A stretch of DNA of 34,849 bases from Steroidobacteraceae bacterium (GCA_049793535.1 JBARBX010000783.1:1-34849), one strand, 5' to 3'; counted from the stretch's first letter, positions 12,241 to 33,310 are shown. The notes: generated by a model not told the origin, from the letters alone. Program-made: numbers and translations.

Positions 12241-12268
12241 GCCGGTTCAACAAACCAGGCCGGTTCAA
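12241..12268 (-). promoter_or_regulatory. Direct repeat GCCGGTTCAA-N8-GCCGGTTCAA (minus strand: TTGAACCGGC x2) 16-43 nt upstream of the Gly/His-repeat gene ATG
   Basis: Exact 10-bp copies at 12241-12250 and 12259-12268, period 18 bp. Function unknown; the position suggests an operator or 5'-UTR element. Confidence 0.3.
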
Positions 12269-12567: not shown

Positions 12568-14490
12568 CTACCGCAGGGCGCACCTCACGCCGGCGATCCG
12601 TACGACTTTCATCGGCAATCCCATGTCCCTGTGGTTGGGCACATCGAGGCTCCACAGAGTGGATCCCGCCGTCGGGCACTCGCATTCGGTAAAACCGAGC
12701 TTGGCATAATGATCTTCGACCAGGCGATTGCGCTCGGTCGGTCGATAGGTGCCGACGATCCGAGCGATGCCGAACTTGCGCGCATGGCTCACCAATTCCT
12801 GTAAGACGGCCTGCTCGACCCGCCGTCCGAGGACGCGGCAGCTCATGAGCCATGTATCGACCAGCCAATCGTCGGCATTGCGCCGGCAGATCACGACACT
12901 GATCATGCCATTGTCGCCGAACGTGTCGACCAGGCGGACCTGAAGCGTGAAGCAATTCGGATCAGCCTCCATTTCACCCACCTGTACTTCGCTGTAGCGG
13001 CGGGTGGTCAGGTTGAACTGGTTGGATTTGTTGATGAGCTGCGCAATTCGCGCCCGGCCGATCTCGTCGAAAGGCCGGAACGTGATCGTCATGCCAAGCG
13101 TCTCGAGGTATGCGTCGAGATCCCCCGCGGCGCGCTGCAACGCCACGCGGCGCGCATTGTCCCGGTAGAAATCGGCGCGCTGCTGGTCCTCCGGAGAAAA
13201 AGCGACCGCCTCGAAGTACCCCGCGGCCAGCAGGGTGCGCACATAAAACGCGGGGTCCTCGGTCAGCTCCGGCACCGCCACTTCGGGCAACATATCGCGG
13301 ACCAAGCGCCGTTCCGCCGGATTGTCATCGAGGAATACCATCGATTCAAGTCCAAGCGACAATTCGTCGGCGATCGTCCGAATGTTGGTTGCCTTGTCGT
13401 GCCAATTTGCCTGGAATACCGCCACGTGATTCTCGTGCAACAGCATCTCAGGATGGTTGCGAAACGGCAGGCGAGCGATCTCATCGTTGTTCTTGGACGA
13501 TACCGCGAGCACTATGCCTCGTTTGCGGAGCGCCAACGCCGCACTCTGCACATCCAGGAACGCTTCACCCTGCGGATCTCCCTGACCGAGCACGATGCCT
13601 TCGAGCCCGTCGTCGCCGATAACGCCGCCCCAAAGCGTGTTATCCAAGTCCAGCACGAGGCAGCGTCGACTCTTGCCGCGCAACGCCGCGATCAGGCGGC
13701 AGGCAAGATCCGCGTAGATCGGCAGGTAGGCGTTGGCGAACGGAATCTTGCCCATATTCCACAAGCCGGGATCATGCCACGACGATAGCCCGACGGTTTC
13801 GGCCAGACCGGCAACATCGAGCAGCAGGTCCGCCTTGCCCGCAAGATCGGTCGACAACTTGCGATTGAAGAGATCGATGACATTGCGGCGCGTGCCGGGA
13901 AGGGCCAGGTCGAGACTGCCGAAGCTGGTTTCGACCGGTCTGGCCAAAGTTTGATAGATGCAGCTCGCACCACAATTTTTTCGCAGCGCGTCGCGTACCG
14001 TCCGCAATTCGTCCAGCGCCCCGTCCACCGCGCCGTCAACGGCGCTCGCAACTCCCAGCGGGACGTCGAACGCAAATGCGCGGTAGTCGAGCGCGACCAG
14101 CACAGCGTCGGGGCGCGCCCGATTGATGGTGGAGTCGGCGTCGAGTGCTTCTTGCATGAACTGGCCGTAGTTCGCCTCTACGCACTCGAGCGCAATGCCA
14201 TGCCGCGCCGCGGTCGCAGTCAATGCCGGCACCATGAAATGCGAGGTGGCATTGCTGATGATGCCGAGCCGAAACGGCGTCAGTGGCCTTAGGCCCTCGG
14301 GACGGCCTCGCACCGCCTCGATCGCGTTTGCAAGGCAGACGAGTTTGTTCTCGTCAAGCGCGAATGATGCCAGGGCGCGTACTTCGCGGCCCAGGTCTTC
14401 CGTAGCTACGCGCAGCGCCCGGCAACGCTTGGTGAAGTCTTCCGGGGGCCGAGGCAGCCACTCGAGGTCCGCGTACAACGACTCACTCAC
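12568..14490 (-). CDS. FkbH-like HAD-IIIC family enzyme (N-terminal FkbH domain + HAD phosphatase core + C-terminal GNAT-like domain)
   Basis: Track ORF 12568..14502 starts at a TTG. I prefer the GTG at 14490, which has GAGG 6 nt upstream. HAD motif I reads CLVLDLDNTLWGGVIGDDGLEG. The C-terminal region has DTFGDNGMISVVIC and LMSCRVLGRRVE, typical of the FkbH-like family as I recall it. Confidence 0.85.
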   Translation of the reverse strand: MSESLYADLEWLPRPPEDFTKRCRALRVATEDLGREVRALASFALDENKLVCLANAIEAVRGRPEGLRPLTPFRLGIISNATSHFMVPALTATAARHGIALECVEANYGQFMQEALDADSTINRARPDAVLVALDYRAFAFDVPLGVASAVDGAVDGALDELRTVRDALRKNCGASCIYQTLARPVETSFGSLDLALPGTRRNVIDLFNRKLSTDLAGKADLLLDVAGLAETVGLSSWHDPGLWNMGKIPFANAYLPIYADLACRLIAALRGKSRRCLVLDLDNTLWGGVIGDDGLEGIVLGQGDPQGEAFLDVQSAALALRKRGIVLAVSSKNNDEIARLPFRNHPEMLLHENHVAVFQANWHDKATNIRTIADELSLGLESMVFLDDNPAERRLVRDMLPEVAVPELTEDPAFYVRTLLAAGYFEAVAFSPEDQQRADFYRDNARRVALQRAAGDLDAYLETLGMTITFRPFDEIGRARIAQLINKSNQFNLTTRRYSEVQVGEMEADPNCFTLQVRLVDTFGDNGMISVVICRRNADDWLVDTWLMSCRVLGRRVEQAVLQELVSHARKFGIARIVGTYRPTERNRLVEDHYAKLGFTECECPTAGSTLWSLDVPNHRDMGLPMKVVRIAGVRCALR

Positions 14491-14498
14491 GGCGAACC

Positions 14499-14780
14499 TC
14501 AAGGCTGGAGTACGGCCCCAGAGGGCTGTTTGTGCTTGGTGAGCGCGACGAGATCGCCGACGTTCTTGAGCCGGCTCATCTCCACCGCGGAGAACTTGAC
14601 GCCGAACGCCTTTTGCACCGACAGAATCAACCGTATGTGCGTCAGACTGTCCCAGCCGTTGACGTCATTGGCCGTCAGCTCGGGTTTTAGCACCAGATCA
14701 TCGTCATCAAAGACTTCGCGAAATACCGAGGTCAAACGAGTGAGGATTGGGTCTTCCATGTATGTCTCCGTGGTATTCAT
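14499..14780 (-). CDS. Acyl carrier protein (phosphopantetheine attachment site GWDSL)
   Basis: The sequence ...LTANDVNGWDSLTHIRLILSVQKAFGVKF... has the DSL Ser motif in a small acidic protein. An alternative and perhaps better start is the ATG at 14759 (MEDPIL...), preceded by GGAG. The stop is 8 nt upstream of the preferred FkbH-like GTG (14490); it would overlap the gene only if the TTG at 14502 is the true start. Confidence 0.85.
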   Translation of the reverse strand: MNTTETYMEDPILTRLTSVFREVFDDDDLVLKPELTANDVNGWDSLTHIRLILSVQKAFGVKFSAVEMSRLKNVGDLVALTKHKQPSGAVLQP

Positions 14781-14789
14781 GACGGCCGG

Positions 14790-15221
14790 TTAGGGCTCCG
14801 CTCGCGCCGGCATGCCGGCAATGATTTCGATCACGCCGACTCCGCTGATCCTGTGGAACGATACTTCGATGCCGTCGAAAAGAAGCGCAGGCTGGGGAAA
14901 CCCGAGAGGTAGTACTTCCAGACCGGCTTGTTCCAGCGCGGCCAGCGATCGTTCGACGTCTTTGGATGTGTAGCAGATATGGTAGATCAAGCTGTCGCCG
15001 TGCTCGAGCACGGAATCTATCGGCGACGGTCCGGCTCCGGGCCATATCACTTCGACATCCGGCATGCGCTCATGATGGCGCATCGCCAGGTTGACCTTTT
15101 GCAGCGGGTCGTAACAGGCGTTTCCGGCGCGGTAACCGAGATCGTCCAAATAGCGCAACGCCGCCTCGGGAGACTTTACCGCCAGGCCCAAATGGTGAAA
15201 TTCGAGTCCATATTGATTCAT
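14790..15221 (-). CDS. VOC-family (glyoxalase I / methylmalonyl-CoA-epimerase-like) protein
   Basis: Track ORF 14790..15317, trimmed to the ATG at 15221 (MNQYGLEFHHLGLAVKSPEAAL...). This ATG overlaps the upstream stop (ATGA at 15218-15221). EFHHLGLAV is the typical first metal-ligand strand of VOC and MCE enzymes. Confidence 0.8.
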   Translation of the reverse strand: MNQYGLEFHHLGLAVKSPEAALRYLDDLGYRAGNACYDPLQKVNLAMRHHERMPDVEVIWPGAGPSPIDSVLEHGDSLIYHICYTSKDVERSLAALEQAGLEVLPLGFPQPALLFDGIEVSFHRISGVGVIEIIAGMPARAEP

Positions 15222-16330
15222 GGCCGCCCCGCGGCGAGCGTAGCGCTCTTCGCTGTTGGCGATTCGTAGGCCACGTCGCCGGCCATGCCGACAAGCCCCG
15301 CCACACGGGCCGCCCACTGCCGAGTGACGCGCGGCTTGGGGTGAACCTCATCTGAAAATTCGAGATCGCCATTCAAATCCGGCATTTCCAGGTGCGCGAA
15401 TCCGTCCCTGCCGTCGAAATGCGAGAGCAGCACCTTCTCGTGCCTCAGGTATTGCGGGTAGATGGGCGAGCGCTCCGCGTGCCAGCGCGGGATCGGCAAG
15501 TCGACGAGCACCACCTTGCTTCCCTGCGCAAGTATCCGGTCGATCAAGTCTCTGAGCACCAAGAACTGCTCCTCCGCGATCGGCCCGTCGCTGTGCATTT
15601 GATCGTGCCAATACTTCAGGGCGGCCTGTTTGTCCGCCTCGGAAACGACGCTGGCGTTGCGTTCGGCATCGGTACGCGAGACGGGGCGCCCGAACAAGCG
15701 GTCGCGCAGTTCCTTGCTCGCGCGCCGCGACAGCTCGTCGAAAACCAAGTAGGGATGAATCAGGGCGACACCAAGCGCCAATTCTGCGGAGGGCAGAACT
15801 TGTTTCGGCCCGTTCTGGGTGCGCCGGTAGAAGCCATAGCGATAGCGCTCAATATCGATGTCTGTGTCGCCCGGGTGCCGATCGGGCGTATCCCATCGGA
15901 ATTTGTCCTGGGTAAACGTGCCGTACCATATGCCGATGACGAACGTGGTGCGGCGTCGCGCCGGCGAACTCTGCAAATCCTGCACCAGATCTACGATTTG
16001 GGCGATTTCGGTCATGTTCGATCCGCCCACGGACAGGTTGTCGACCTCCTCATTCGGAAGCAGTGCTTGCACCTCGTGCTGCTTGAACCCGACCGCCGTG
16101 TTCGAAGCGCCGACGAACACAATGCGGGGCGCATCGGGCCTGACCGCGGCTCGGTTCAGAAACACGTACTTGGGGTCGGTCATGAAAATCGTGTTGTTGG
16201 CGAGAGTGGAATCCAGCCCGCCTCCTCGACTTTCCGGCGGCACCAATCCATAGGAGACGCCCAGCAAGACGCCGTAGATCCCCCCCAGCGCGAGCAGCAC
16301 GAACAGGCCTTGTTTGAGAATTGCGCGCAC
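15218..16330 (-). CDS. N-terminally membrane-anchored SGNH/DltD-like putative acyltransferase or esterase
   Basis: A single N-terminal TM helix (LKQGLFVLLALGGIYGVLLGV). Candidate SGNH blocks are IVFVGASNTAVG (block I Ser), LSVGGSNM (block II Gly) and FSDEVHP (block V Asp-x-x-His). The GTG start abuts the MBOAT stop codon. The family call is by analogy with DltD, AlgX, AlgJ and PatB and is not proven. Confidence 0.6.
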   Translation of the reverse strand: MRAILKQGLFVLLALGGIYGVLLGVSYGLVPPESRGGGLDSTLANNTIFMTDPKYVFLNRAAVRPDAPRIVFVGASNTAVGFKQHEVQALLPNEEVDNLSVGGSNMTEIAQIVDLVQDLQSSPARRRTTFVIGIWYGTFTQDKFRWDTPDRHPGDTDIDIERYRYGFYRRTQNGPKQVLPSAELALGVALIHPYLVFDELSRRASKELRDRLFGRPVSRTDAERNASVVSEADKQAALKYWHDQMHSDGPIAEEQFLVLRDLIDRILAQGSKVVLVDLPIPRWHAERSPIYPQYLRHEKVLLSHFDGRDGFAHLEMPDLNGDLEFSDEVHPKPRVTRQWAARVAGLVGMAGDVAYESPTAKSATLAAGRP

Positions 16331-17776
16331 CTAGAACGCCTTGTAAACAAATTCCGGGGCTTTGTGAAAAAAAGACCCCACTGCGAAGATCAACAGCACC
16401 CCGCTCGCCAGAACGACATTTCGCGCAATGAGGCCCGGGACTCCGGGCCGGTCGAGTCGGGGCACCATACCCGCCAGCATCCGGCCGGCCCGATCCACGA
16501 CCGGGCCGCCAACGGCAGCGCACAGTGTCGTGCCGAGGAGCGCGAACAGCAGCCCGCCGGCGCCGAGCCGGCGCGCCAGCAGCCCGAGTTGATCCATGTT
16601 GACCCAAAGAGCGGTGACCGCGAGGGCGAAGAAGGCGAACATCAGCCCACGCGCCAAGCTGGCGTACACAAATGATTCTCCGATTGCTCTGTACTGCTTC
16701 TTGCCGAAACGATTGGTCATGAAGACCTGCCAGAGCTTGTTGAGGCTGGCGCCCGCGCCCATGACCAACCCGTAGATCACGAAGACACCGGTCGAGCCAT
16801 GCCACACACCCATCACGAAGAATGTGACGAAGAACGCGATCACTCCCAGATAGGGCAGCCACACCGGCGCCGCCACCCGGCCGGCCAGAAACGCCATCAG
16901 CGGATTGAACAGGTAGGTCTTGAACCATTGCGAAAGGGTCATGTGCCAGCGGGACCAGAACTCGAATATGTTGCGCGCGGAAAACGGCCGGTCGAAATTC
17001 TCCGGCAGCTCCTGACCGAGCAGCCATCCAACGCCGATGACGATGTCCATATAGCCGGAGAAGTTGAAGTACAGGTAAAAGGTGTAGGCGACGGCACTCG
17101 CCGCATACTGCGCGGCAAAGCGCCAGCCGACCATCGGCGTCGTCTCACCGAGCACGGCGGCGGATAAATTGGCAAATAGATAGTTGAAGACCGCCGACAC
17201 GACGGCGAGTTTGATGAAGCCCTTGATTATCCGATGCGCCGCTCTGAACGCGATGGCGTCGTCGACCTTGCGGTCGAGCAGCCCGAGGCCGGCCAAGTAT
17301 TCGTTGGAGCGCTGTATCGGGCCCGACACGAAGCAGAGAAAATTGCAGGTGAAATTGAAAAACCCAAGCGGATCGAGCCGCGCCTCCTCTTCACCGCCCG
17401 CGCTGTCGATCACCATCTGCAGGACGCGGAAGAGAATGTATGAAAGCCCGATCTGCAGGTACAGGAACGGCAGTTCGATCCGAGCGGGCAGGAAAGTGTA
17501 GCGCTTGAGCACCGCGAATACCGCGACGATCAAGACGATCGTCCACCCCAGGAGTCCGGGTTTGCGCCAGCGCGCCACCCAGCGCGTGGCGGCGTATCCC
17601 AACACGAGAAACCCCAGCAATGGAGCCAGTTGCCCGGCCGATTGAACGAAACTCGCGAGGAACAGCAAATTCGCAAGCAACAACAACCCTTGCCGGAAAA
17701 GTGGTGCGCGCCAAGCGTTGAACGCCAGCACGGTTGCGGTTACAAAGCCGAGATACAGGGTCGATGTGAAATCCAC
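16331..17776 (-). CDS. MBOAT-family membrane-bound O-acyltransferase (DltB/AlgI-like)
   Basis: Polytopic membrane protein with MBOAT signatures FWSRWHMTLSQWFKTYLFNPL and FFVMGVWHG (conserved His). GTG start 5 nt after the GH16 stop. Confidence 0.9.
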   Translation of the reverse strand: MDFTSTLYLGFVTATVLAFNAWRAPLFRQGLLLLANLLFLASFVQSAGQLAPLLGFLVLGYAATRWVARWRKPGLLGWTIVLIVAVFAVLKRYTFLPARIELPFLYLQIGLSYILFRVLQMVIDSAGGEEEARLDPLGFFNFTCNFLCFVSGPIQRSNEYLAGLGLLDRKVDDAIAFRAAHRIIKGFIKLAVVSAVFNYLFANLSAAVLGETTPMVGWRFAAQYAASAVAYTFYLYFNFSGYMDIVIGVGWLLGQELPENFDRPFSARNIFEFWSRWHMTLSQWFKTYLFNPLMAFLAGRVAAPVWLPYLGVIAFFVTFFVMGVWHGSTGVFVIYGLVMGAGASLNKLWQVFMTNRFGKKQYRAIGESFVYASLARGLMFAFFALAVTALWVNMDQLGLLARRLGAGGLLFALLGTTLCAAVGGPVVDRAGRMLAGMVPRLDRPGVPGLIARNVVLASGVLLIFAVGSFFHKAPEFVYKAF

Positions 17777-17781
17777 GGCGC

Positions 17782-18747
17782 CTATACCTTGAGACGGGCG
17801 ACCTTGACTGAACTGATGATCATGTCGGCCGGGTAGTCGTGCTGAATGAGATCCGAACCGGCGGACAGCCGCTCCGGCGAAACGCCATCAATGGGCTGCA
17901 CATTCAATTCGTTGTACGGCCATTTCCCGCCGACCGCCAAATTGACGATCAGATACATGTTTTGCTGAAGAGAGGGCGGCGTTGGCTGTTGCCACAAAAT
18001 TCTTCCGTCGAGCAAACCGGTCATCGACTGCGGTGTCCAGTCCAGGCCATACTCGTGAAAGTCCGCGGAGGGATTGATGTTCAGATCCATCCATTGGCTG
18101 AAATGTCCGCCGGCTCCTTTGGGCACCATAGCGCCGAAATGTATCTGTTCCTGATGCTTACCCCAGGGCATGGCTTCGAAAATGTCGATCTCCGGCGGCC
18201 ACTGATGCGATTCGGGCAGCAGCCACAGGCCCGGCCACGAGCCGCGCGCCGATGGCAATTTGGCGGCCACGCGTATGCCCCCGAAAGTAAATGAGGCTCG
18301 CGACAGCAACATGCCGGAGCCGAAACGCCGGTATCCACCGACACGATAAGCCGACTGTTGTGCCGCGCTCAACAGCGATGCCTTGATGTGCAGGCCGTCG
18401 GGTTGAATTGAAAATGGGTCGTAACGCAAGTCCACCGGAACCGGGGTGCCCTTGATCCTATCGATGAGGGGGGTGACGTAGGTTTGGCACTCGGCATTGC
18501 CTCCGAGCCAGTTGGTGCCGTCTCCGTAGCTGTCCGGCCATTTAGTGCCCGGCCAGAAGGTGAAGGCCCATCGACTGGTATCGGGATAGAGTTTTTTGCC
18601 GCCGCCGGGCATTGTAATTTGTACACCGCGGAAATCATCTTCGATGATGTGGGTGTCACTCTGCGCGAGAGCTCTGTCGCCGCGGGCAGACAGCAGCAAG
18701 GCGCCCGCCCCCGTTGCCGTGTTAACGAGAAAATCACGCCGATTCAT
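17782..18747 (-). CDS. Tat-exported glycoside hydrolase family 16 (beta-glycanase, ExoK-like position in an EPS locus)
   Basis: Tat signal MNRRDFLVNTATGAGALLLSA. The GH16 catalytic motif E-I-D-I-F-E occurs in WPGLWLLPESHQWPPEIDIFEAM. Confidence 0.85.
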   Translation of the reverse strand: MNRRDFLVNTATGAGALLLSARGDRALAQSDTHIIEDDFRGVQITMPGGGKKLYPDTSRWAFTFWPGTKWPDSYGDGTNWLGGNAECQTYVTPLIDRIKGTPVPVDLRYDPFSIQPDGLHIKASLLSAAQQSAYRVGGYRRFGSGMLLSRASFTFGGIRVAAKLPSARGSWPGLWLLPESHQWPPEIDIFEAMPWGKHQEQIHFGAMVPKGAGGHFSQWMDLNINPSADFHEYGLDWTPQSMTGLLDGRILWQQPTPPSLQQNMYLIVNLAVGGKWPYNELNVQPIDGVSPERLSAGSDLIQHDYPADMIISSVKVARLKV

Positions 18748-18913: not shown

Positions 18914-20704
18914 GTGATCACGCTGATCGTCCCCACCCGGAATCGGGCGCATACCTTGCGGCTGGTTGCGCCCAGCTACTTTGCGCAGGATGACGTCGAT
19001 GAACTGATCTTCGTCAGCGACGCCGGCGACGACGAAACGCCTGCCGTCCTCACGGAAATCGCTCGGCGGTTTCCGCAGAAGTCGCTGCGAATACTGTGCA
19101 ACGAAACACGGCTGGGCGCGTCTCAATCGCGCAATGTCGGCGTCGCCGCAAGCACGAATGACATCATTCTGTTTTGCGATGACGATGAATACCTCGAGGC
19201 TGGATACGCGCGCACCTTGTTGCTGAAGCTTCAGGCGCCGAACGTGGGCGCCGTCTCCGGGCGCCGCGTCTACATGCTGCCGGGTGAGACGGAATCTCAG
19301 GCACTGCACAGGTTCTGCACCGGTCTGCACGACGTCAAACCCTTCCGTGCCCTGATTTGTGAATACGTGAACGGTGCGCAATTCTCGGGCGACCTTTCGA
19401 TTCCGGTCACCAACGCGATAATTCTCACCAAGAAGAGCTTGCTGCTCAAATTCCCCTTCGACGCACACTATGCGAGAGGCAATGGATATCGCGAAGAGAC
19501 CGATTATCAAATGAACCTGTTCGTGAATGGATTCGATATCCGGGTCACGAACGACTGCCACAGCTTTCATCTGCCGATGTCGCAGGTGCGAACGGGCGGT
19601 CAGCGCACCAATACTCTCAGGCGCCTCTATTGGTCCATCCACTACACTCGCTATTTCTTTGGGAAGTACCACGAGCGCTACGCCCGGCGCCTCGGGCTAG
19701 GATGGCCGCGCTGGTTTTCGCTGCTGACATTTTCGATTTTTTCCGCCTACCGCGAGACATTGCGCCCGCTGTTGCATGCCGCCGGGATGGCCGTTCTGGC
19801 ACGCCGCAGGCGGTTGTCGGACTTCTGCCCGCGGGCGAATACAGGCGTCGACCGCAACGACGCCGACCGAAGCGTGCTGACCTTCGTCATTCCCGTGCGC
19901 CATCCGCAGAATTCACAGGACTGGCCGGCGCTCAAGCGCAGACTCGCGGACACCCTGCGCTCGATTGCGGGCCAGGACGACGTTCGCTGGCGTGCCATCA
20001 TTGTTGCCAATGAAGGCTCGGATTTGCCGCCGTTGCCGGACAACTTTGCGGTCAAGCGGGTCAACTTCCCCCCAAACCCAATGTTCGAGCGGGGGGATTG
20101 CGACCTCGAGGCGTTCCGCGACGCCGTCCGTCTCGACAAAGGGCGGCGAGTGCTCGCCGGCATTCTGGAAGCCGATCGATCCGGCTACGTGATGGTCGTG
20201 GATGACGACGATTTCGTGAGCTGCCGACTGACGGGTTTCGTGGCCGGCCACCTCGGCGAGAACGGCTGGTACGTGAGGAACGGCTACATTTGGGGCGACG
20301 GAGGCAGGTTAATTTACGAGTACGCCGATTTTTCCCGATTCTGCGGGACCTCGCACATCATCCGGGCGGCGCTATTCGAATTGCCCGCAAGCGTCGAAGC
20401 AGCCGATCCGGACTACATTCGCAAGATATTCGGCAGCCATATATTCATACGCGAATATCTGGAGGGGCGCGGTGAGCCTCTTCAGCCGCTGCCCTTTGTG
20501 GGCGCCATCTATCGCGTTGGCCATGCGGGCGCCCACAGCAAGTCTGCGGGGCTGATCAAACAGGTTTTTTTCAACCGTGAGCTCCTTAGGAACCCGCTCA
20601 AGATCGCGGCAAAGTTCGCACGCATACGGCTGTTGGGCGCCGATATCCGGCGCCATTTCTGGGGAATCCGTGCGGCCGATCGCGCTACCCATGTCCACGG
20701 TTAG
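18914..20704 (+). CDS. Two-domain glycosyltransferase (two GT-A/GT2-like modules joined by a hydrophobic segment)
   Basis: GTG start with GAGAGG 8 nt upstream. Module 1: ITLIVPTRNRAHTL...ILFCDDDEY. Hydrophobic linker: WPRWFSLLTFSIFSAY. Module 2: LTFVIPVRHPQNSQDW...AIIVANEGSD...VMVVDDDDFV. Confidence 0.8.
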   Translation: MITLIVPTRNRAHTLRLVAPSYFAQDDVDELIFVSDAGDDETPAVLTEIARRFPQKSLRILCNETRLGASQSRNVGVAASTNDIILFCDDDEYLEAGYARTLLLKLQAPNVGAVSGRRVYMLPGETESQALHRFCTGLHDVKPFRALICEYVNGAQFSGDLSIPVTNAIILTKKSLLLKFPFDAHYARGNGYREETDYQMNLFVNGFDIRVTNDCHSFHLPMSQVRTGGQRTNTLRRLYWSIHYTRYFFGKYHERYARRLGLGWPRWFSLLTFSIFSAYRETLRPLLHAAGMAVLARRRRLSDFCPRANTGVDRNDADRSVLTFVIPVRHPQNSQDWPALKRRLADTLRSIAGQDDVRWRAIIVANEGSDLPPLPDNFAVKRVNFPPNPMFERGDCDLEAFRDAVRLDKGRRVLAGILEADRSGYVMVVDDDDFVSCRLTGFVAGHLGENGWYVRNGYIWGDGGRLIYEYADFSRFCGTSHIIRAALFELPASVEAADPDYIRKIFGSHIFIREYLEGRGEPLQPLPFVGAIYRVGHAGAHSKSAGLIKQVFFNRELLRNPLKIAAKFARIRLLGADIRRHFWGIRAADRATHVHG

Positions 20705-22166
20705 CCGCAGCACGACTGCAAAATCCCTGGTCTGGAGCACGGTCGAGAACGGCGGTCTGGCGATCATTTCCTTTGCCTCGCTCATCATCTACATGCGGCT
20801 GCTGTCGGCCGCGGATTATGGCCTGTTTTCGGCGGCACTGGCCCTCATCGAGTTGTTGGGCGTGTTGGTTACCATGCTGTTTCACAACGCGCTGGTGCAG
20901 CGGCCGGAAGTGACGGAGCTGCACTTCAACACGGCCTTTACGGCCACGATGGCCGTGAGTTTTCTCATGGTGCTCGGTTGCTGGGCGATCGGACCGCTAT
21001 TTGCGACATCGGTCCATCAGCCCGCCGCAGGCAGTGTTCTTATTTGGATGAGCCTGGTGTTCCCCTGCTCCGCCGTGAGCGCAACGCTGGTCGCCCGCCA
21101 ACGGCGGCAGTTTGACTTTCGCGCACTGGCACTGCGTTCTCTGGTAGGCCGCACAATAGGCGGGGGCATCGGCATCGCGGCCGCATTCATGGGGGCCGGA
21201 CTGTGGAGCCTGGTTCTTCAGCAAATACTGATTGCCGCCATCGGCTCGTTGGTGCTGTGGGTGACCTCCGACGCCACCCCCCGTCTTCGATTTCGCTACG
21301 GCGAATTCAGGCAGATGATAGGTTTTGGCGCGCTCTCCGTGAGCGGACTGCTGCTGTCGGCCTCGATCAGAAGGGTGTTTACACTGCTGGCGTCCTGGTT
21401 TCTCGGCGTCGAGGCCGCGGGCTACCTCAATTTGAGCTTTCGCGTCGTCGATGTGTTCTGGGCGATTGCCGCCACGGCCGTAGCGCAGGTGGCTCTTCCG
21501 TTGTTGGCGGGGCTGCAATTCGACCCGGATCGGCTCAAGCGAGCCTACCAATCGTCCACACAACTCTCCTGCCTCGCTCTTTACCCCTGCTTCGTCGGAC
21601 TGGGCGCAGTGGCGCCGGATATCGTCGAGGTTCTGTTCGGCCATCGATGGCAGCCCAGTTCGCCCTACGTCACAGTGCTCGGTTTTCTCGTCCTGCTGCA
21701 GGTGCCGCGTCTGGTGTTTACGCCGCTGCTGACGGCGCTGGGCAAGCCGCGAGATGCGCTCATAGGGTTGCTCGCTGAACTGTTATTCCTGCTGGGCATT
21801 GCCTGGTCGTTCGGGATGCCCTCGATGCCGTGGGCAATCGCCTCATGGGTCGCGAGCGAGTGCGTATTGCTCCTGGTTTCGAGTTCGGTGCTGAGGCGCG
21901 CGACCGGCTACAGTCTTTTCGAGCAGTTTGGCGGAGTTCTGAAGCCGCTACTCGCCTGCTTGCTGATGGCCGCCGCGGTCATCGAAGCTCGCCCGGAATT
22001 ATCCGCCGATTTGGGGCCGGCCTTACGGTTGACCTTGCTGGTGCCGCTGGGTGCGATGATCTACGTTGTTTCGATATTCCTCCTGGATCGACGCTTGGTG
22101 AAAAACTTCCTGGAGTTCGCGCGAACCGCCTTCGAAAGCAAACGCAAGCGGCCCGAGCTGCCTTAA
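20691..22166 (+). CDS. Wzx-type polysaccharide flippase (MOP/PST family)
   Basis: Track ORF 20577..22166, trimmed to the ATG at 20691 (MSTVSRSTTAKSLVWSTVENGGLAIISF...), the typical PST N-terminus. It has about 12-14 TM helices and overlaps the preceding stop by 14 nt. Confidence 0.8.
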   Translation: MSTVSRSTTAKSLVWSTVENGGLAIISFASLIIYMRLLSAADYGLFSAALALIELLGVLVTMLFHNALVQRPEVTELHFNTAFTATMAVSFLMVLGCWAIGPLFATSVHQPAAGSVLIWMSLVFPCSAVSATLVARQRRQFDFRALALRSLVGRTIGGGIGIAAAFMGAGLWSLVLQQILIAAIGSLVLWVTSDATPRLRFRYGEFRQMIGFGALSVSGLLLSASIRRVFTLLASWFLGVEAAGYLNLSFRVVDVFWAIAATAVAQVALPLLAGLQFDPDRLKRAYQSSTQLSCLALYPCFVGLGAVAPDIVEVLFGHRWQPSSPYVTVLGFLVLLQVPRLVFTPLLTALGKPRDALIGLLAELLFLLGIAWSFGMPSMPWAIASWVASECVLLLVSSSVLRRATGYSLFEQFGGVLKPLLACLLMAAAVIEARPELSADLGPALRLTLLVPLGAMIYVVSIFLLDRRLVKNFLEFARTAFESKRKRPELP

Positions 22167-23212
22167 GCGAACGCCCGACGTCTGAGGTCGCTTTTGACTC
22201 CTTCCAGGCGGCCCAGAGTATCGTCCAGCGAGCGCGCGTGAGCGTGATCCGAACTCAGAAAGCCCTTGCTGTACCTCAGCTTGTCCAGATGCGCCGCGGC
22301 GACGGCGCTCATTTGCCGGCTTGACCCCAAGCCGGTTGCCGCCAGCCGTTTCAAGATGGCTTCAAGTCCCATGCTGGCGTTCCAGCGCCATCGTTGATCG
22401 ATACGGCGGCCGACTTCCTCAAAGCCGGACATCAGCAGATCCACATCGTCGAAATGCATTCGAATGCCCTGCGCCACCAGACCGGGCGAAGGGTAGCCAG
22501 GCGCATTGGAGTGTACGGTCCACTTGAGCAGCGTGTTGCGTAGGTACTCGATTCCACTGCTGGCGGGCAGGCAAATGGGACTGTACGAAACGTTCAGCGA
22601 CGATGCCCAGTCGACCCATTTGAAGGGCGATACCTCCCGGGAAAGAGCGACGGGAATCCAGGGCACCCGGAATGCGTCCGCGACGATGGCCGCATGCATG
22701 GATTCCGCAATGACCTTCTCAGCGGCGGCAATCCGTCTGACCACCGACCTCGAATCGCCGCACGGATGAACGAACTCGATTCCGAGGCTTTCGCAAATCG
22801 TCTCCCAATTGCCGTAGCGGACGCTCTTCCAATGAGGAATGAAAATGGTGCCTCGCCGGTTAAGTCCGCTGAACTCTGGCAGCGTGGCCAGCAGAATGGC
22901 CGGGTCCGTCATGGCGAAGCGCTCGTCGAGATGCAATGCGTGAGCGGTCAGGGGCCCACGCACGCCATAGATTCGCCAGCGAACAGAGTCGGTCGTTATG
23001 TCGCGAGGAACGGACGTATAACCGACTCCGGTGCCGAAAACGATCGTCACCCGGGCCGGAGGTAGATTCCTGTCGAGAATCGTGCCAATGCCGACGAACA
23101 GGACATCGTCCTTCGCATCGCCGCACACGTCGCCGAGCAGTTCGGGCCATAGCCATCGATTCAGCTCGTCGCCGAAATTTCCGCCGACCTGCTTGAGAAG
23201 ATGAATCTTCAC
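22163..23212 (-). CDS. Polysaccharide pyruvyl transferase (ExoV/CsaB-like)
   Basis: Track ORF 22163..23587, trimmed to the GTG at 23212, which overlaps the upstream TGA (GTGA). This gives an N-terminus VKIHLLKQVGGNFGDELNRWLWPELL, matching the GN(F/x)GDxLN motif of PS_pyruv_trans and ExoV proteins. Confidence 0.75.
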   Translation of the reverse strand: MKIHLLKQVGGNFGDELNRWLWPELLGDVCGDAKDDVLFVGIGTILDRNLPPARVTIVFGTGVGYTSVPRDITTDSVRWRIYGVRGPLTAHALHLDERFAMTDPAILLATLPEFSGLNRRGTIFIPHWKSVRYGNWETICESLGIEFVHPCGDSRSVVRRIAAAEKVIAESMHAAIVADAFRVPWIPVALSREVSPFKWVDWASSLNVSYSPICLPASSGIEYLRNTLLKWTVHSNAPGYPSPGLVAQGIRMHFDDVDLLMSGFEEVGRRIDQRWRWNASMGLEAILKRLAATGLGSSRQMSAVAAAHLDKLRYSKGFLSSDHAHARSLDDTLGRLEGVKSDLRRRAFA

Positions 23213-24510
23213 GGCCTGATCATATAGGTCACACTCGCCATCGCGAGCGTATCGTTGAACTGAAACCGGGCTTGATTGGACTCGCGCTGTTCGTACGTGA
23301 CCGAGAGTTTGAAGGTAAGTGAAGACGTCGGGGTGTAGGCGACGCGCGCCTGCTCCGTCGTCAACCGGTCGTGGCGCGAGAAGTACGTGAGCGCGCTCGG
23401 GCTGGAACTGATGTAGTCGTGATTCTCCCGTGAAACGCCCGCGGAAAGAGTCAAGGTGTCCGCGGCAATCCACACCGGCGCGATCGCGACCCCATTCGAG
23501 ACGAAATAATCCGACTCCGCCTCCACGTATGCCGTGAGCTGGCGCCAACCTGTCAATACCCATTGCAAATTGTCGGTCGGCTGCCACTGCAGCGCCGCCT
23601 TCCAGATGTCTCCCGAGAAGGTCGCGAATCTCGACTCCGGATAGTCGCGCTTCAAATAGCCGGCGCTGGCGTCGAGCTCCGTCGCGGCGCTAAAGACATA
23701 TTTGACCAGGATGCGCTCCGTATCCTCTCGGTAGTCCGAATTGAAGGGCGTTCCGTTCAATACGAAGTTCTGCGGGAAGGTTGCATCCGTGTAGCGATAG
23801 TCGAACGTCACCGTGTTCTGGGACGCGGCCGCAAGCTCGATTCCGGCGTTTCCGGCCTTGCTGTGAAAGTCGTACAATTGCTCGGGGACCGCGGTCTGCG
23901 ACGTATCCGCGCCGATCACTCCGCCGTAAATCGCCCAATGCGGTCCGACCTGGTAACGAATATTGCCGAAGTAATCTTCCCTTTCGACCACATCGCGTGC
24001 GTAGTAGCCCGTATCGGCGAAATTGGCGAGCCCCCGGAAATAGCTCACACCCACCTGCCCCGACCAAAAGGATGCCAGCCGCCAATCCCACTCGAGGTTG
24101 CCCTTACCCGAGACGTTGTCCAACGAGTCGTTATGGACGAAGCGATTGTCGTCGGCGCGGAAATCGATGCCAAACGTCTGGCTGTCCGAAAACCAACGGC
24201 CATCGCCGCCCAAGGTGGTGGAATTGAAGCCATCCTGGCGTCTCGCCATGGGCCCGGCCACGGTCGTGACGTCGAAGTAGGACGGCAGCCTGTAAAGGTT
24301 GTCGTCGTAGTTGAATTGGTCGGCAATGAACAAGTCGAGATTGTTCGGGGAATCTCTGGTAATCGGCGAATCCGTGGTAAGAGTCGGATTCGCGGGCACC
24401 GGGGGATTCGGGGCAAGCGGCGGATTTGTCAGAAGAGGCGGATCGCCGAATGCCGACGATCCCATTCCCATCGACAGGCCAACCGCCAGTACGTGCAGGC
24501 ATTTACGCAT
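23209..24510 (-). CDS. Outer-membrane beta-barrel protein of the EPS locus (EpsL-like, inferred)
   Basis: Track ORF 23209..24636, trimmed to the ATG at 24510 (signal peptide MRKCLHVLAVGLSMGMGSSAFG). A Pro/Asn-rich linker is followed by about 400 aa of alternating hydrophobic/polar strands rich in Tyr, Gly, Asp and Asn, typical of OM barrels. The family assignment is inferred. Confidence 0.6.
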   Translation of the reverse strand: MRKCLHVLAVGLSMGMGSSAFGDPPLLTNPPLAPNPPVPANPTLTTDSPITRDSPNNLDLFIADQFNYDDNLYRLPSYFDVTTVAGPMARRQDGFNSTTLGGDGRWFSDSQTFGIDFRADDNRFVHNDSLDNVSGKGNLEWDWRLASFWSGQVGVSYFRGLANFADTGYYARDVVEREDYFGNIRYQVGPHWAIYGGVIGADTSQTAVPEQLYDFHSKAGNAGIELAAASQNTVTFDYRYTDATFPQNFVLNGTPFNSDYREDTERILVKYVFSAATELDASAGYLKRDYPESRFATFSGDIWKAALQWQPTDNLQWVLTGWRQLTAYVEAESDYFVSNGVAIAPVWIAADTLTLSAGVSRENHDYISSSPSALTYFSRHDRLTTEQARVAYTPTSSLTFKLSVTYEQRESNQARFQFNDTLAMASVTYMIRP

Positions 24511-25795
24511 GTGCACTCCGACGCTTGGCCGCCGCGACATCGATGTCGAGCAGGCCCGTGCCCGGCGTTGTGGGAAGCATCCGTACGGCGGCCCACTGCC
24601 GACGTACATCGAATATCGCCTGCCGAAGCCGTTCACCCCTGACGCTCCATCGGAATTGCGTACTGCCGAGCGAGAAGGCGCGCTCTTGCATCCGATTCAA
24701 CTCGTCGAATCGATCGATGTGGGAAACTATGTCATCGATCAATCCCGCCTGGCTGCTGTTGGTCAGCATCGCACTCTGAAGTTCATCCGACAGACCCGCG
24801 ACGGCCTGCGATACCGTCGCGATGGGCACGCGCCCGAAGATGTAGTCCAGCAATTTGAGTTTGAATCCGCCTCCAATGGATTCGTGAACGATCGCAATGC
24901 GCGCACGGCTGAGCAGAGGCGCACAATCGGCCACGAAGCCGTGAAAACGCGTGGCCCGGCAACGCGTCCGCAGCGTGGCGAGGAGCGCCTGCGGCATTTC
25001 CCCGACAATGTCCAATTCGATTCCGTGCTCCTGGAAAATCGGATCGGCGACCCTTACGAAGCGGGCGATATTTTCCTGCTTCACGATCCATTGGAACGAG
25101 CCCATGATGACCACGCGCCGAGGCATTGCCGGCGTGATGCACCGTGGGCCTGCCACCGGCCCGGTGTACCCGGGCGTGAGCGACAATATATGGTCGTGCG
25201 TCATACCCGCGCCCAGCGACCGGCGGTCTTCATCGGTGATTGCGGTCAGTAAATCCACATTTCGAACCATCCGCCGCTCCAGCGTGCGCACCTTGTTTGC
25301 GTTGCGCCGGAGCAGCCATCTCTTGAGGACCGCTGCGCGCGATTCGCGGGCCATCGAGTCCCACAGGAGTTCCTCATGATTGTGCGCTACATGCACGAGA
25401 ACCGTCGGATGGGCCGGCCTTTCACTCCGATACGCCAGGCATCGGTCAAGTGCCCAGCCTGTTGCATAACCGTCGAGCACCACTGCATCCCACTGCTCGC
25501 ACAATTGCGTCTCGAGGACTGCGCGGTAGGTATTGGTCGCATCGATGGCGGCCGCGATCGGCCAGCGGCTGAATGCGGCGCGAATCTTGCTGCGCCGTCT
25601 GCCGGGTACCGCCAGCCAGTCGACGCCGGCGGCCGATTCCGGCACGCTGCTTGCGTCTCCGACGCCGACGAAACGCACGAATGTTCCCGCCTGAGCCAGA
25701 GATTGCGCAAGATTGGCCGAATACACTTTCGCACCCTCGTTTGACGGAAATGGCACGTAGCGGGAGATCCAAAGGCATCGCATCCGATTGCTCAT
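24503..25795 (-). CDS. GT-B fold glycosyltransferase (GT4-like)
   Basis: Track ORF 24503..26257, trimmed to the ATG at 25795 (MSNRMRCLWISRYVPFPSNEGAKVYS...). This ATG shares 1 nt with the upstream TGA (TGATG). The C-terminal region has HESIGGGFKLKLLDY, an E-x7-E-like motif. Confidence 0.8.
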   Translation of the reverse strand: MSNRMRCLWISRYVPFPSNEGAKVYSANLAQSLAQAGTFVRFVGVGDASSVPESAAGVDWLAVPGRRRSKIRAAFSRWPIAAAIDATNTYRAVLETQLCEQWDAVVLDGYATGWALDRCLAYRSERPAHPTVLVHVAHNHEELLWDSMARESRAAVLKRWLLRRNANKVRTLERRMVRNVDLLTAITDEDRRSLGAGMTHDHILSLTPGYTGPVAGPRCITPAMPRRVVIMGSFQWIVKQENIARFVRVADPIFQEHGIELDIVGEMPQALLATLRTRCRATRFHGFVADCAPLLSRARIAIVHESIGGGFKLKLLDYIFGRVPIATVSQAVAGLSDELQSAMLTNSSQAGLIDDIVSHIDRFDELNRMQERAFSLGSTQFRWSVRGERLRQAIFDVRRQWAAVRMLPTTPGTGLLDIDVAAAKRRSAHA

Positions 25796-26949
25796 CAGGG
25801 TGATCTCCGAATAGATGCGGCAGGACTCCATGTCTGGTAGCGGTCTCCGCGCAACGACCGCCATACACCCAGTCCGGTGCCTGCCAATGCGGCAATGGTC
25901 CCTGCGAATTGTGCGAAAGGCCGGATCGTCGACACGCAGCCCAGATACAGCGCCGCCGCAATGCAAAGGGCGAGCGCAGCGGCGAGCGGCGCATGCCCCG
26001 CGACGATCAGTGCGCCCTGGAACGCCAGGGCGGCGATCGCCAGCAGGTAAATCGTGAACCAGCGAATCAATTTGTGCGAAATATATTTGTAGAGCGTGAT
26101 TCCATCGAGCCTGCGGAGCTGCGGCCAAAGCAGCCGGTGCACGTTGAACGCCTGGCAGGCTATGCGTATTTTGCGCCTGAACTCTTCGCGTCCCGACACC
26201 ACTGATTCTTCGTAGGCCAGCGCGTCGCTGGCCTGTATGACCCGGAAACCGCTGCACATTATCTTCAGCGACACATACAAGTCGTCGATGATGTGGTCCG
26301 GCGGCGGCTGGTGCAGCGCGCGCCTGATCGCGAACACCGACCCGTCCGCCCCGATGGTGGAACCGCTTTCCATCTCGAGCTTCTTGATCGTCTCTTCAAA
26401 CCGCCAGTAGGCCGACCCGGATGACGCGGTCGCCGATGCCCTGCCGTTCGTATAGACCAGACTGCCGCAGACACAGCCGACATCCGGGTCGATAAAGTAC
26501 CGGCGAAAATCCCGCACGCAATCCATATCCATCAAGACATTGGCGTCGCTGAAGATCAATATCAGCGCCTGCGCCTTGGCCGCCAAAACATTCATGCCGT
26601 AAGTCTTTCCAAGGCGACGCGTCTCGACGTACAGGCTGATTTGCGCTCCGTACTCCCGCAGGATGTCGGCGGTGCGGTCGGTCGCTCCGTCTACATAGAC
26701 GAGTATCTCGAGACCCGGCTCGCGCGCGCGCAGCGCCAAGAGATTTTCGACCTTGCGCGCGATGGCGCGTTCTTCGTTGTACGCGCACACGCAAATTGCG
26801 CAATTCAATGGAGCGCTAGCCCCCTCCCCGGTGCGGCGCCTGACGGGGTGCAGCACCTGGAGGACGATAAGCGACCACGGATAGGTGATGAACGGGTGGC
26901 AAGCCGCGAGCACGCACAGAATTCCCAGGACAAACAGCGCGGTGCTCAT
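25795..26949 (-). CDS. Membrane-associated GT2 family glycosyltransferase
   Basis: Track ORF 25795..27183, trimmed to the ATG at 26949 (ATGA overlap with the upstream stop). An N-terminal TM helix is followed by ICVCAYNEERAI...VYVDGATDRT...IFSDANV (DxD-like), then C-terminal TM helices. Confidence 0.85.
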   Translation of the reverse strand: MSTALFVLGILCVLAACHPFITYPWSLIVLQVLHPVRRRTGEGASAPLNCAICVCAYNEERAIARKVENLLALRAREPGLEILVYVDGATDRTADILREYGAQISLYVETRRLGKTYGMNVLAAKAQALILIFSDANVLMDMDCVRDFRRYFIDPDVGCVCGSLVYTNGRASATASSGSAYWRFEETIKKLEMESGSTIGADGSVFAIRRALHQPPPDHIIDDLYVSLKIMCSGFRVIQASDALAYEESVVSGREEFRRKIRIACQAFNVHRLLWPQLRRLDGITLYKYISHKLIRWFTIYLLAIAALAFQGALIVAGHAPLAAALALCIAAALYLGCVSTIRPFAQFAGTIAALAGTGLGVWRSLRGDRYQTWSPAASIRRSP

Positions 26950-28268
26950 GCCCGGCCTCCTAGATTCAGTGCCGGCAGATCGGCGGCGACAGTCGTCGTG
27001 GGGGTCCGCAGCGACGATTTTCCGAGCCACTGGCCGCGTCTCTCCCGCTCGGGCCCCGGTTTCCACAGCAGCAAGCTCAGCGCCAGCCCATGGGCAAATG
27101 GCGTGTAGATTCCGTTTAGAAGGTAGGTGATACCGATTGCGAGCGTCAGAATTCGCGGTGCCGGCGAGTAAAATAGGCAGCAAAACAGAAATCCAAAATA
27201 CGCGACCGCCCCGACCAGGCCGAATTCGAGCACGATCTTGAACAGCGCCATCTCGTCCGCGCCATAGTGGGCGCGCGAGGCATAGTTGCTAAAGGCGCCG
27301 GCCCCATATCCGAACAACGCCCGCCAGGGATCGCCCCACAGGAATCGATCGAAGAGATAGAACCCGCCTACAAAGCGCGAGAAGCCGCTCGAATGACTCG
27401 AGCCGAACTCGGCCAGCCGCGACAGTAAACGGACCGGGTGCACGTACTCGTGCAACAGAATGATCGCCACCGATCCCAGCATTCCGGCGAGCAGAAGCCC
27501 CCAGCGACGCCGAGCCACCAGGCACCAGGGCAGGCAAACGGCGAGCACCACGATGCCGGTACCGGAATACGATGCGATCAGCGCCAGCCCGAATATGGCG
27601 AGACGGGTTATCCGGCCCCGGGTGCACAATTCAGCAAGTATGGCGACGGCAAGGAACTGACTGAAAAAGGAGGGCTCCAGGAAAAAGACGCCGTTGGCCC
27701 GGTATTCATGCGAGCCGTACTCCATCGCCGCCTGATGATTGAAGTGCTGGACAATGAACGTGTTGGGGACGAAATTCTCGATGGGGAACAGATAGCGCGG
27801 ACTGACGAAGAATTGCAGGCAGAATTGCGCAATGCCCAACAAGGCAAAGATCGTGGCCACTCCCAGAAAGAACCCGATAATGCGGTCGCCGTCGTCGCTG
27901 TGCGGCACGGTCACCGCATACGGCAGATGCACGGCGACCAGCAGCAGCAACGACAAGGGAGAGAATGCTTCCGGCTGCAGGAGTTGAATCAGACCCAGAG
28001 ATCCAACGAGCATGAAATAGAGGGTCAATCGCCGTGGCTCGATGCGCATGCCGCCGCCGACCGTGCCCGCGATGACGGCTGCCAGCAACACGAAAATGGA
28101 GATACCGATTCCCTGTGCGCCGAAGGGCGGAATCGCGAAATTCGACAGAAAAGTGGCGCCGATCAGCGGCGTGACCAGGAGGGCGAAACGCAGCCCGTTC
28201 GTCGCCGGGACTGCGCCGCCCGCGGCATCCGCGGTTGCGCGCGTGGGCGCTGCAATCGCGCTAGCCAT
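26946..28268 (-). CDS. Wzy-like polysaccharide polymerase / O-antigen-ligase-family membrane protein
   Basis: 440 aa with about 10-12 TM helices and a larger loop in the C-terminal half. No other enzyme motif. Sits between the chain-length/kinase genes and the GTs, and overlaps the upstream gene by 8 nt. Confidence 0.7.
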   Translation of the reverse strand: MASAIAAPTRATADAAGGAVPATNGLRFALLVTPLIGATFLSNFAIPPFGAQGIGISIFVLLAAVIAGTVGGGMRIEPRRLTLYFMLVGSLGLIQLLQPEAFSPLSLLLLVAVHLPYAVTVPHSDDGDRIIGFFLGVATIFALLGIAQFCLQFFVSPRYLFPIENFVPNTFIVQHFNHQAAMEYGSHEYRANGVFFLEPSFFSQFLAVAILAELCTRGRITRLAIFGLALIASYSGTGIVVLAVCLPWCLVARRRWGLLLAGMLGSVAIILLHEYVHPVRLLSRLAEFGSSHSSGFSRFVGGFYLFDRFLWGDPWRALFGYGAGAFSNYASRAHYGADEMALFKIVLEFGLVGAVAYFGFLFCCLFYSPAPRILTLAIGITYLLNGIYTPFAHGLALSLLLWKPGPERERRGQWLGKSSLRTPTTTVAADLPALNLGGRA

Positions 28269-30611: not shown

Positions 30612-30628
30612 AAAGACTCGCGTTGGGT

Positions 30629-32897: not shown

Positions 32898-32926
32898 GAC
32901 ATCCGGATGGCAACGAACACTCAAGG

Positions 32927-33310
32927 TCAGCCATAGGGCGTAATCCGCCTTTGCGGCAACGACTTGTGTTTGTGCCGAAGCTGCAGAACGATCAATCCAA
33001 GGGCCGCCAGCATGATCAACCAACCATTGAAGGTCCCTGTATTGGCGGCCTGTCGCTGCACAAACGCTGAAGTGGCCCTCATCCTTTTGACCACGCGGCC
33101 CTTGATGTTCGAGAAATTGGCGCGCGGTCCCGGATAGCTGCCTCGCTCGCCTGATTTCGACAGCGTTCGCGCGGGAGGTTCCATCGTCGGCAGAGTTATG
33201 GGGTCGATGGCGAGAGATGCCTCCGCCTGTTGCGTTTGCGCATCGGAGCTGCTCGCATTCGTGTACGCGATCGCGCACAGGCATACCAACAACAATTTAC
33301 AACGTCTCAT
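32927..33310 (-). CDS. Small exported protein with C-terminal TM helix plus basic anchor; first gene of the EPS operon
   Basis: ATG at 33310 (the track start at 33325 is a TTG). Signal peptide MRRCKLLLVCLCAIAYTNA, then an 80-aa polar low-complexity region, then WLIMLAALGLIVLQL-RHKHK. No family recognised. Support for coding comes from its position 30 nt upstream of the priming GT and its signal/anchor architecture. Confidence 0.45.
   Translation of the reverse strand: MRRCKLLLVCLCAIAYTNASSSDAQTQQAEASLAIDPITLPTMEPPARTLSKSGERGSYPGPRANFSNIKGRVVKRMRATSAFVQRQAANTGTFNGWLIMLAALGLIVLQLRHKHKSLPQRRITPYG

Follow-up and report, generated by a model that had tools for sequence, protein, structure and literature searches.

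Bacterial systems in which an MBOAT membrane acyltransferase works together with an SGNH protein are currently divided into two kinds: the Dlt pathway, which uses a carrier protein and DltX, and the remaining pathways, which use acetyl-CoA and a fused motif and have no carrier (PMC12148441). [quoted passage not shown] FkbH, acting with a free-standing acyl carrier protein (ACP), turns 1,3-bisphosphoglycerate (1,3-BPG) into glyceryl-ACP (PMC7489565). Here we analyze a five-gene module, encoding an MBOAT, an SGNH-like protein, a VOC protein, an ACP and an FkbH homologue, in a 34,849-nucleotide stretch of DNA from Steroidobacteraceae bacterium (GCA_049793535.1 JBARBX010000783.1:1-34849), the whole of which is hereafter called the window. 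With a probability of roughly 0.6, we propose that the module uses a carrier protein and an MBOAT/SGNH pair to O-acylate the exopolysaccharide (EPS) made by the locus around it, the acyl group being a C3 2-hydroxyacyl derived from glycerate.

Gene order and co-conservation of the module

The five module open reading frames (ORFs) all lie on the minus strand within 12568-17776. An original prediction, made from the sequence alone, had described five packed minus-strand genes, and its junctions were confirmed by reading the sequence. The stop codon of the MBOAT gene (TAG, 16331-16333) abuts the GTG start of the SGNH-like gene at 16330, and the SGNH-like and VOC genes share an ATGA overlap at 15218-15221. 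The VOC stop is separated by 9 nt from the ATG of the ACP gene (14780), and the ACP stop by 8 nt from the GTG of the FkbH gene (14490), for which an alternative TTG at 14502 gives a 4-nt overlap instead. Judging from these junctions, the module genes are translationally coupled. A GH16 glycanase gene ends 5 nt ahead of the MBOAT GTG at 17776, so that the operon counts six genes, in the order GH16, MBOAT, SGNH-like, VOC, ACP and FkbH.

Every peptide motif quoted in that prediction was located in the translated products, including RWHMTLSQWF (residue 276) and GVWHG (323) in the MBOAT; GASN (74), GGSN (102) and DEVH (327) in the SGNH-like protein; DSL (44) in the ACP; and DLDNT (285) and SCRV (554) in the FkbH homologue. 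Profile searches upheld the MBOAT, VOC, PP-binding and FkbH/HAD-IIIC assignments. The same searches found no AMP-binding (adenylating) domain in any sizeable ORF of the window, in line with the claim that the module has no adenylating enzyme.

A scan of one genome per GTDB species, using a 14-sequence alignment and a single peptide pattern, recovered at least 59 loci. These came from Steroidobacteraceae and other Gammaproteobacteria, Burkholderiales (Rhizobacter, Rhodoferax, Albidiferax), ten species of Bradyrhizobium, Acetobacteraceae, Dongia, Methylocella, Stellaceae and Polyangiaceae, so that the module spans Gamma-, Beta- and Alphaproteobacteria and Myxococcota. Close relatives of the window copy are found in Steroidobacteraceae metagenome-assembled genomes (MAGs). 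Gene content was determined for 63 loci by phmmer searches of the window proteins against six-frame ORFs. Of the 57 loci not interrupted by a contig end, 55 have the MBOAT, SGNH-like, ACP and FkbH genes together, which indicates that the arrangement is not a chance juxtaposition; in the same 55 loci the FkbH gene takes the place of a loader, as had been proposed. The anticipated co-conservation of an FkbH-ACP-MBOAT-SGNH set in polysaccharide loci was thereby borne out across four bacterial classes.

The four genes stay together despite changes in gene order. Steroidobacteraceae loci read GH16-MBOAT-SGNH-VOC-ACP-FkbH, those of Bradyrhizobium FkbH-MBOAT-SGNH-ACP-VOC, and those of Burkholderiales MBOAT-SGNH-ACP-MaoC-SDR-FkbH. 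The four core genes were also co-located in distant metagenome samples at 33%, 28% and 25% identity; a further sample at 26% identity consisted of a short contig with only the MBOAT and SGNH-like genes on it.

Module proteins and swappable tailoring genes

The MBOAT matches PF03062 (5e-8) and the DltB model TIGR04091 (3e-50), the latter at 171 bits and thus below the 375-bit cutoff. Although the score is under the equivalog cutoff, DltB is the best match among NCBIfam models and PDB entries; the closest solved homologues are the DltB structures 8JEM and 6BUG (2e-26), and the RWHMxLSxWF and GxWHG motifs align between the MBOAT and DltB. His278, His326 and Tyr478 are invariant in 58 orthologues. 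Unlike DltB, the protein has three extra hydrophobic segments after the MBOAT core, followed by the terminal hexapeptide listed in Table 1. FVYxxF ends 61 of the 62 recovered MBOATs, and the single exception (L062) ends in FVYGGY, with the tyrosine retained. On the strength of these features, the MBOAT appears to be a hybrid of both known bacterial types, with a DltB-like core and a fused shuttle motif in the style of PatA and AlgI. By analogy, it is predicted to take the acyl group off acyl-ACP and place it on its own C-terminal tyrosine. The label "dlt-like" given in the original prediction consequently holds for only half of the system: the DltB- and DltD-like parts and the carrier are present, whereas the MBOAT itself bears FXYXXF and a separate DltX is absent.

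The 370-aa SGNH-like protein has no Pfam or NCBIfam match, and its assignment comes from structure. An AlphaFold2 model built on a 65-member alignment reached a mean predicted local distance difference test score (pLDDT) of 93.8 and a predicted template modeling score (pTM) of 0.90. The top Foldseek match in the PDB was DltD of Enterococcus faecalis (6O93; E 5.4e-5, probability 1.0, template modeling score 0.45), followed by SGNH esterases, PatB (7TJB, 8TLB) and the C-terminal domain of OatA. The 65 sequences are 22-48% identical to the window protein; all of them have Gly74, Ser76 and His330, and at least 90% keep Asp327. The structural comparison of 15218-16330 therefore agrees with what had been expected of it, namely an SGNH fold with DltD as the best PDB match and a conserved Ser/His pair. 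A single hydrophobic transmembrane segment, at residues 4-22, is the only one in the protein and fits a predicted membrane-anchored periplasmic domain. We conclude from the model that the protein has an SGNH fold of DltD-like type; a role as a transferase is predicted. An exhaustive search placed it in a family of about 346 representative clusters at 50% identity, nearly all of 340-380 aa. The family profile gave no meaningful match among all PDB sequences, and the link to DltD and SGNH proteins thus rests on the fold together with weak matches to PF13472, which were obtained for 12 of the 65 members (the DltD family was matched by 0 of 65). A tblastn search of the protein against 72,556 plasmids gave no match.

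The FkbH homologue comprises an FkbH_N domain (1e-6), a HAD-IIIC phosphatase domain (TIGR01681, 4e-16, 60 bits against a cutoff of 36) and a C-terminal transfer domain, and it scores well above the cutoff of the FkbH model itself (TIGR01686, 1e-84, 284 bits against 147). D285, D287, T289, K337, K370, D392, D393, C539 and C555 are invariant in 52 orthologues. The first three constitute HAD motif I (DxDxT), and Cys555, within MSCRV, is a candidate for the cysteine that forms the acyl-S-enzyme. For its N-terminal and HAD domains there is a match to 3SLR (BF1531; 9e-59), a structural-genomics entry annotated as uncharacterized and the only solved member of the polysaccharide-associated FkbH subfamily. 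In three loci on long-read MAG contigs (L006, L007, L009), the FkbH homologue matches only piecemeal (about 12100-13700); these fragments could be assembly frameshifts or real pseudogenes.

The ACP matches PP-binding (2e-5) and falls under all housekeeping-ACP and DltC cutoffs (19 bits against 68 for the DltC equivalog). W43, D44, S45 and L46 are invariant in its orthologues, and in nearly all loci its gene is next to FkbH or elsewhere in the module. Among solved structures, 2LML, a "putative acyl carrier protein", is the closest homologue (3.9e-20). Both 2LML and 3SLR are close structural-genomics homologues without assigned function, and their own genomic contexts might show the same module. 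In one locus (L003), a phosphopantetheinyl transferase gene lies a few genes off, 6.4 kb upstream of the MBOAT gene.

The VOC protein was previously described as VOC/methylmalonyl-CoA-epimerase-like. The first part stands (Glyoxalase_4, 5e-15), whereas the second does not, as the protein is nearer to glyoxalase I: its closest solved homologues are 3HDP (Glyoxalase-I) and 2QH0 (Lactoylglutathione lyase), both at 4.5e-12, which represent the Clostridium acetobutylicum enzyme. Orthology with methylmalonyl-CoA epimerase was rejected, given an equivalog score of 31 bits against a cutoff of 115 and an E value of only 0.3 for the PDB epimerase 1JC4. The conserved His/Glu/His/Glu set consists of H9/H10, E57, H81 and E132, so that the second metal-ligand position is a conserved glutamate; the ligand set of methylmalonyl-CoA epimerase is H/Q/H/E. 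Glyoxalase I makes a 2-hydroxyacyl thioester via a metal-bound enediolate, and a glyceryl thioester would for this reason be a chemically sensible ligand for the VOC protein. The proposed D-to-L epimerase is possible and finds no specific support here, and we regard C2 epimerization as a doubtful assignment.

VOC lies outside the conserved core and was present in about half of the loci in the phmmer survey. In Burkholderiales, Polyangiaceae and one Stellaceae locus its place is taken by two genes between those for the ACP and FkbH, one for a MaoC-type dehydratase bearing the hydratase-2 motif SGDFNPLH and one for a classical SDR that has YxxxK and a Gly-rich NAD(P) motif. MaoC was counted only for matches spanning about 430-580 nt, since short matches overlapping the ACP gene are an out-of-frame artefact. 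A full-length VOC gene was found together with MaoC and SDR in 0 loci, and three loci had no recognizable tailoring gene. The SGNH tree largely tracks the split between VOC and MaoC/SDR. Among distant members, one has MaoC and a radical SAM enzyme, one a methyltransferase, and one VOC, an extended SDR and a methyltransferase. In the first of these (L064, 54-7482, 25% identity), MaoC is followed by a 543-aa radical SAM enzyme, FkbH, ACP, MBOAT and SGNH-like, a set that suggests a C-methylated or otherwise radical-modified acyl group. A dehydratase and a ketoreductase acting on 2,3-dihydroxypropanoyl-ACP would give lactyl-ACP. A fixed core for loading, carrying and export combined with swappable thioester enzymes is what would be expected if the ACP-bound acyl group goes to the MBOAT. 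In about 16 Burkholderiales-type loci (for example L060, 7809-8549, plus strand), an extra canonical GDSL/SGNH gene (PF13472, 1.7e-24) lies directly upstream of the MBOAT gene and could encode a second transferase or an editing esterase.

Proposed acylation route and competing explanations

In the route that we propose, the acyl group, the acceptor and every enzymatic step are inferred, whereas the gene set, folds, residues, linkage and context that they build on were observed. In the cytoplasm, the FkbH homologue would take 1,3-BPG and form an acyl-S-enzyme on its conserved cysteine; its HAD domain would remove the 3-phosphate, and the D-glyceryl group would be passed to the phosphopantetheine arm on Ser45 of the ACP. 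This loading step follows from the conserved catalytic residues and the established chemistry of the FkbH family. The VOC protein may then act on the ACP-bound 2-hydroxyacyl thioester via a metal-bound enediolate, either epimerizing C2 or eliminating the 3-hydroxyl, which is the weakest step. By analogy with DltB/DltX and PatA, the MBOAT would accept the acyl-ACP at the cytoplasmic face and, through His326, deliver the acyl group to Tyr478 of FVYKAF on the periplasmic side. The anchored SGNH/DltD-like protein would finally take it on Ser76 and presumably esterify with it a hydroxyl group on a sugar of the EPS, while the polymer is exported or afterwards. Taken by itself, the overall architecture is probably as proposed, and we lean, with somewhat less confidence, towards a glycerate-derived acyl group.

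Several points weigh against this route. The family of the SGNH-like protein has no sequence-level match to DltD or to the DltD Pfam family. The sequence of the VOC protein does not separate epimerization from beta-elimination or other chemistry; lactyl cannot be made by VOC alone, and a pyruvoyl ester would be labile. In addition, MBOAT/SGNH pathways other than Dlt lack a carrier protein, as users of acyl-CoA, and MBOATs with a fused FXYXXF are so far known as users of acetyl-CoA, the fused motif being a hallmark of this group (PMC12148441). Finally, two loci at a locus edge (L010 and L024) keep the MBOAT and SGNH-like genes with no ACP or FkbH gene nearby.

The last two points would fit two linked but independent functions, that is, an acetyl-CoA-dependent MBOAT/SGNH O-acetyltransferase of the PatA/PatB or AlgI/AlgJ type, next to a separate FkbH/ACP/VOC acylation in which the glyceryl-type group is joined to a sugar precursor or a lipid-linked repeat unit in the cytoplasm. 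An fkbH-domain gene, cj1302, in the flagellar glycosylation locus of Campylobacter speaks for the same arrangement; that locus presumably has its own ACP and no MBOAT, in which case it would show FkbH serving glycans without an MBOAT. We nevertheless consider this arrangement unlikely. The four genes stay adjacent despite order changes, down to 25% identity, and are coupled in the window as described above. No co-conserved cytoplasmic or soluble acyltransferase able to unload the ACP was found among the surveyed loci, as would be needed if the ACP served a separate reaction. The SGNH tree largely agrees with the tailoring class, as it should if the tailored acyl group is what the transferase handles. 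As for the two exceptional loci, L010 carries short VOC and FkbH remnants at 11113-11302, followed by DUF1993 and MFS genes, and in L024 the region concerned runs from 3364 onward; both have lost VOC as well as ACP and FkbH and look like natural partial deletions of the module, and the remnants in L010 point to decay and not to an alternative design.

A less probable alternative retains the carrier-dependent architecture and changes the acyl group, with the FkbH subfamily loading some other phosphorylated or activated small acid. The diversity of the tailoring sets and the uncharacterized status of BF1531, the only solved subfamily member, leave room for it. Against it, the score of the window protein is nearly twice the FkbH cutoff with the HAD motifs and cysteine kept, 1,3-BPG is the substrate of every characterized FkbH, and the dehydratase and ketoreductase set is chemically sensible for a 2,3-dihydroxyacyl thioester. 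It is least likely that the acceptor is another envelope molecule, such as lipopolysaccharide O-antigen, periplasmic glucans, peptidoglycan or lipid: MBOAT/SGNH pairs do act on peptidoglycan, teichoic acids, alginate and cellulose (PMC12148441) and nothing in the sequence points to the acceptor, but in Steroidobacteraceae, Rhizobacter, Bradyrhizobium and L003 the module sits in loci that are of Wzx/Wzy type or rich in glycosyltransferases, and a secreted GH16 glycanase is encoded in the same operon.

The Wzx/Wzy-type EPS context of the window extends from the GH16 gene at 17782 to 33284, and carries genes for GT2, a flippase, a pyruvyl transferase, a BBP2 barrel, GT4, a further GT2, an unassigned membrane protein, a tyrosine-kinase-like ATPase, Wzz/GNVR, Wza and a Bac_transf priming enzyme. 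A polysaccharide setting was seen in all four lineages examined: besides Steroidobacteraceae, the surroundings comprise Bac_transf, GT2 and GT4 in L003, flippase, GT4 and GT2 genes in Rhizobacter, and GT4, AT3, GT2, epimerase and Wzc in Bradyrhizobium sp. ORS 111. The GH16 gene upstream of the MBOAT gene is kept in Steroidobacteraceae-type loci and, by this conservation, appears to be an accessory part of the module in that family; it resembles the EPS-trimming glycanases of succinoglycan-type loci.

On the other side of the module, 5170-12568 holds several further genes before S46 peptidase and MFS genes are reached. They include a winged-helix and STAND NTPase regulator (6109-8640), a fusion of metallo-beta-lactamase (MBL) and rhodanese domains (9313-10353), an AHSA1-like protein, a 421-aa protein without a family and a Gly/His-rich secreted protein (11695-12225); in the relative L001, only two genes (307 and 521 aa) lie between the module and the peptidase gene. 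An arylamine N-acetyltransferase gene (33638-34465, minus strand; PF00797, 4e-54) just past the EPS priming-transferase gene probably has no connection with the locus. Scans of the window against Rfam and for tRNAs gave no match, and a promoter and terminator scan of the window did no better than on shuffled sequence.

Table 1. Coordinates of the module, its predicted functional residues and neighboring features in the window
Feature	Position	Strand	Basis
MBOAT membrane acyltransferase, 481 aa	16331..17776	-	PF03062, TIGR04091
SGNH-fold DltD-like protein, 370 aa, one N-terminal transmembrane helix	15218..16330	-	AlphaFold model and Foldseek
VOC / glyoxalase-I-like metalloenzyme, 143 aa	14790..15221	-	Glyoxalase_4
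Dedicated acyl carrier protein, 93 aa	14499..14780	-	PP-binding
FkbH-type enzyme, 644 aa (from TTG)	12568..14502	-	TIGR01686, HAD-IIIC, FkbH_N
MBOAT His326 codon (GVWHG), predicted catalytic histidine	16799..16801	-	Aligns with His of DltB GFWHG, invariant
MBOAT C-terminal hexapeptide FVYKAF (Tyr478), residues 476-481	16334..16351	-	Fits FXYXXF acyl-shuttle motif
SGNH-like Ser76 codon (GASN, block I), predicted nucleophile	16103..16105	-	Invariant
SGNH-like DEVH, Asp327-His330, SGNH block V	15341..15352	-	His330 invariant, Asp327 at least 90%
ACP Ser45, predicted phosphopantetheine attachment site	14646-14648	-	DSL serine
GH16 glycanase, twin-arginine translocation (TAT)-type signal; first gene of the operon	17782..18747	-	PF00722 1.7e-15 and TAT signal match
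Wzx/Wzy-type EPS locus, presumed acceptor source	18914..33284		Pfam scans

Comparison with known acylation systems

To our knowledge, no transfer route has been established for non-acetyl hydroxy-acid esters of EPS, such as the L-glycerate of gellan. Such L-glycerate esters have been documented on gellan (Kuo et al. 1986, as cited in PMC9104527 and PMC4432689), and the module offers a testable route for esters of this type. It is experimentally tractable, being found in cultured strains such as Rhizobacter sp. Root1221 and Rhizobacter sp. LjRoot28, several Bradyrhizobium species and Dongia sedimenti. Moreover, exchange of the swappable tailoring genes could be a means of engineering the acyl decoration, and hence the rheology, of polysaccharides. 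We found no paper in the open-access literature searched linking FkbH to polysaccharide acylation or to an MBOAT, though an earlier description is possible.

The closest counterpart is the Dlt pathway of teichoic acid D-alanylation (DltA, DltC, DltB, DltX and DltD), with which the module shares a dedicated carrier, a DltB-like MBOAT and an anchored DltD-like SGNH protein, as well as the presumed relay from thioester to tyrosine, serine and polymer. It differs in its loader, an FkbH HAD-IIIC enzyme in place of the adenylating DltA; in its shuttle motif, which the MBOAT itself carries where Dlt has the DltX microprotein; and in its acyl group, presumably a hydroxy acid where that of Dlt is an amino acid. 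The host is, in addition, Gram-negative and the setting an EPS locus, with both the MBOAT and the ACP under the DltB/DltC equivalog cutoffs. The possibility that the module is itself a Dlt operon was ruled out, as it has neither DltA nor DltX.

PatA/PatB, AlgI/AlgJ/AlgX and WssH/WssI resemble the module in that the MBOAT has additional C-terminal helices and ends in FXYXXF, the SGNH protein is separate and periplasmic, and the target is a Gram-negative envelope polymer, which in the case of the module is suggested by the EPS context. Those systems transfer acetyl from acetyl-CoA with no carrier or loader, whereas the module co-conserves an ACP, FkbH and thioester-tailoring enzymes; the co-conserved ACP and loader would argue against a carrier-free acyl-CoA donor.

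With the FkbH/FkbJ methoxymalonyl-ACP pathway and the tetronate (glycerate-utilization) operon, the module shares an FkbH-type enzyme and an adjacent standalone ACP, together with the HAD motifs and the cysteine. It is without the FkbK/FkbI dehydrogenases, the FkbG methyltransferase, the FabH-like tetronate enzyme and a polyketide synthase (PKS), and its ACP is paired with a membrane acyltransferase, so that the product would end on a polysaccharide. The loci with MaoC, SDR, FkbH and ACP share their enzyme set with the DH-KR-FkbH-ACP loading modules of trans-acyltransferase (trans-AT) PKSs. OocJ carries a comparable DH-MT-FkbH-ACP loading module, and BryA reportedly obtains a D-lactate starter from an FkbH loading module, according to one proposal. 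In the module, these enzymes are discrete proteins and not PKS domains, and the window has VOC in place of the dehydratase and reductase.

Set against these systems, the module would extend carrier-dependent MBOAT/SGNH polymer acylation by a new loader, by fusion of the shuttle motif and by a class of polymer new to it. We put at even odds the broader reading that it is the first carrier-dependent MBOAT/SGNH pathway outside Dlt, in which FkbH diverts 1,3-BPG to an ACP, swappable enzymes yield glyceryl, lactyl and methylated variants, and an MBOAT with a built-in shuttle exports them to EPS. If so, it would provide the route, missing until now, by which some EPS acquire glycerate and lactate esters; the generalization that fused-motif MBOATs are carrier-free would fail, and Gram-negative MBOATs would be able to use acyl-ACP donors.

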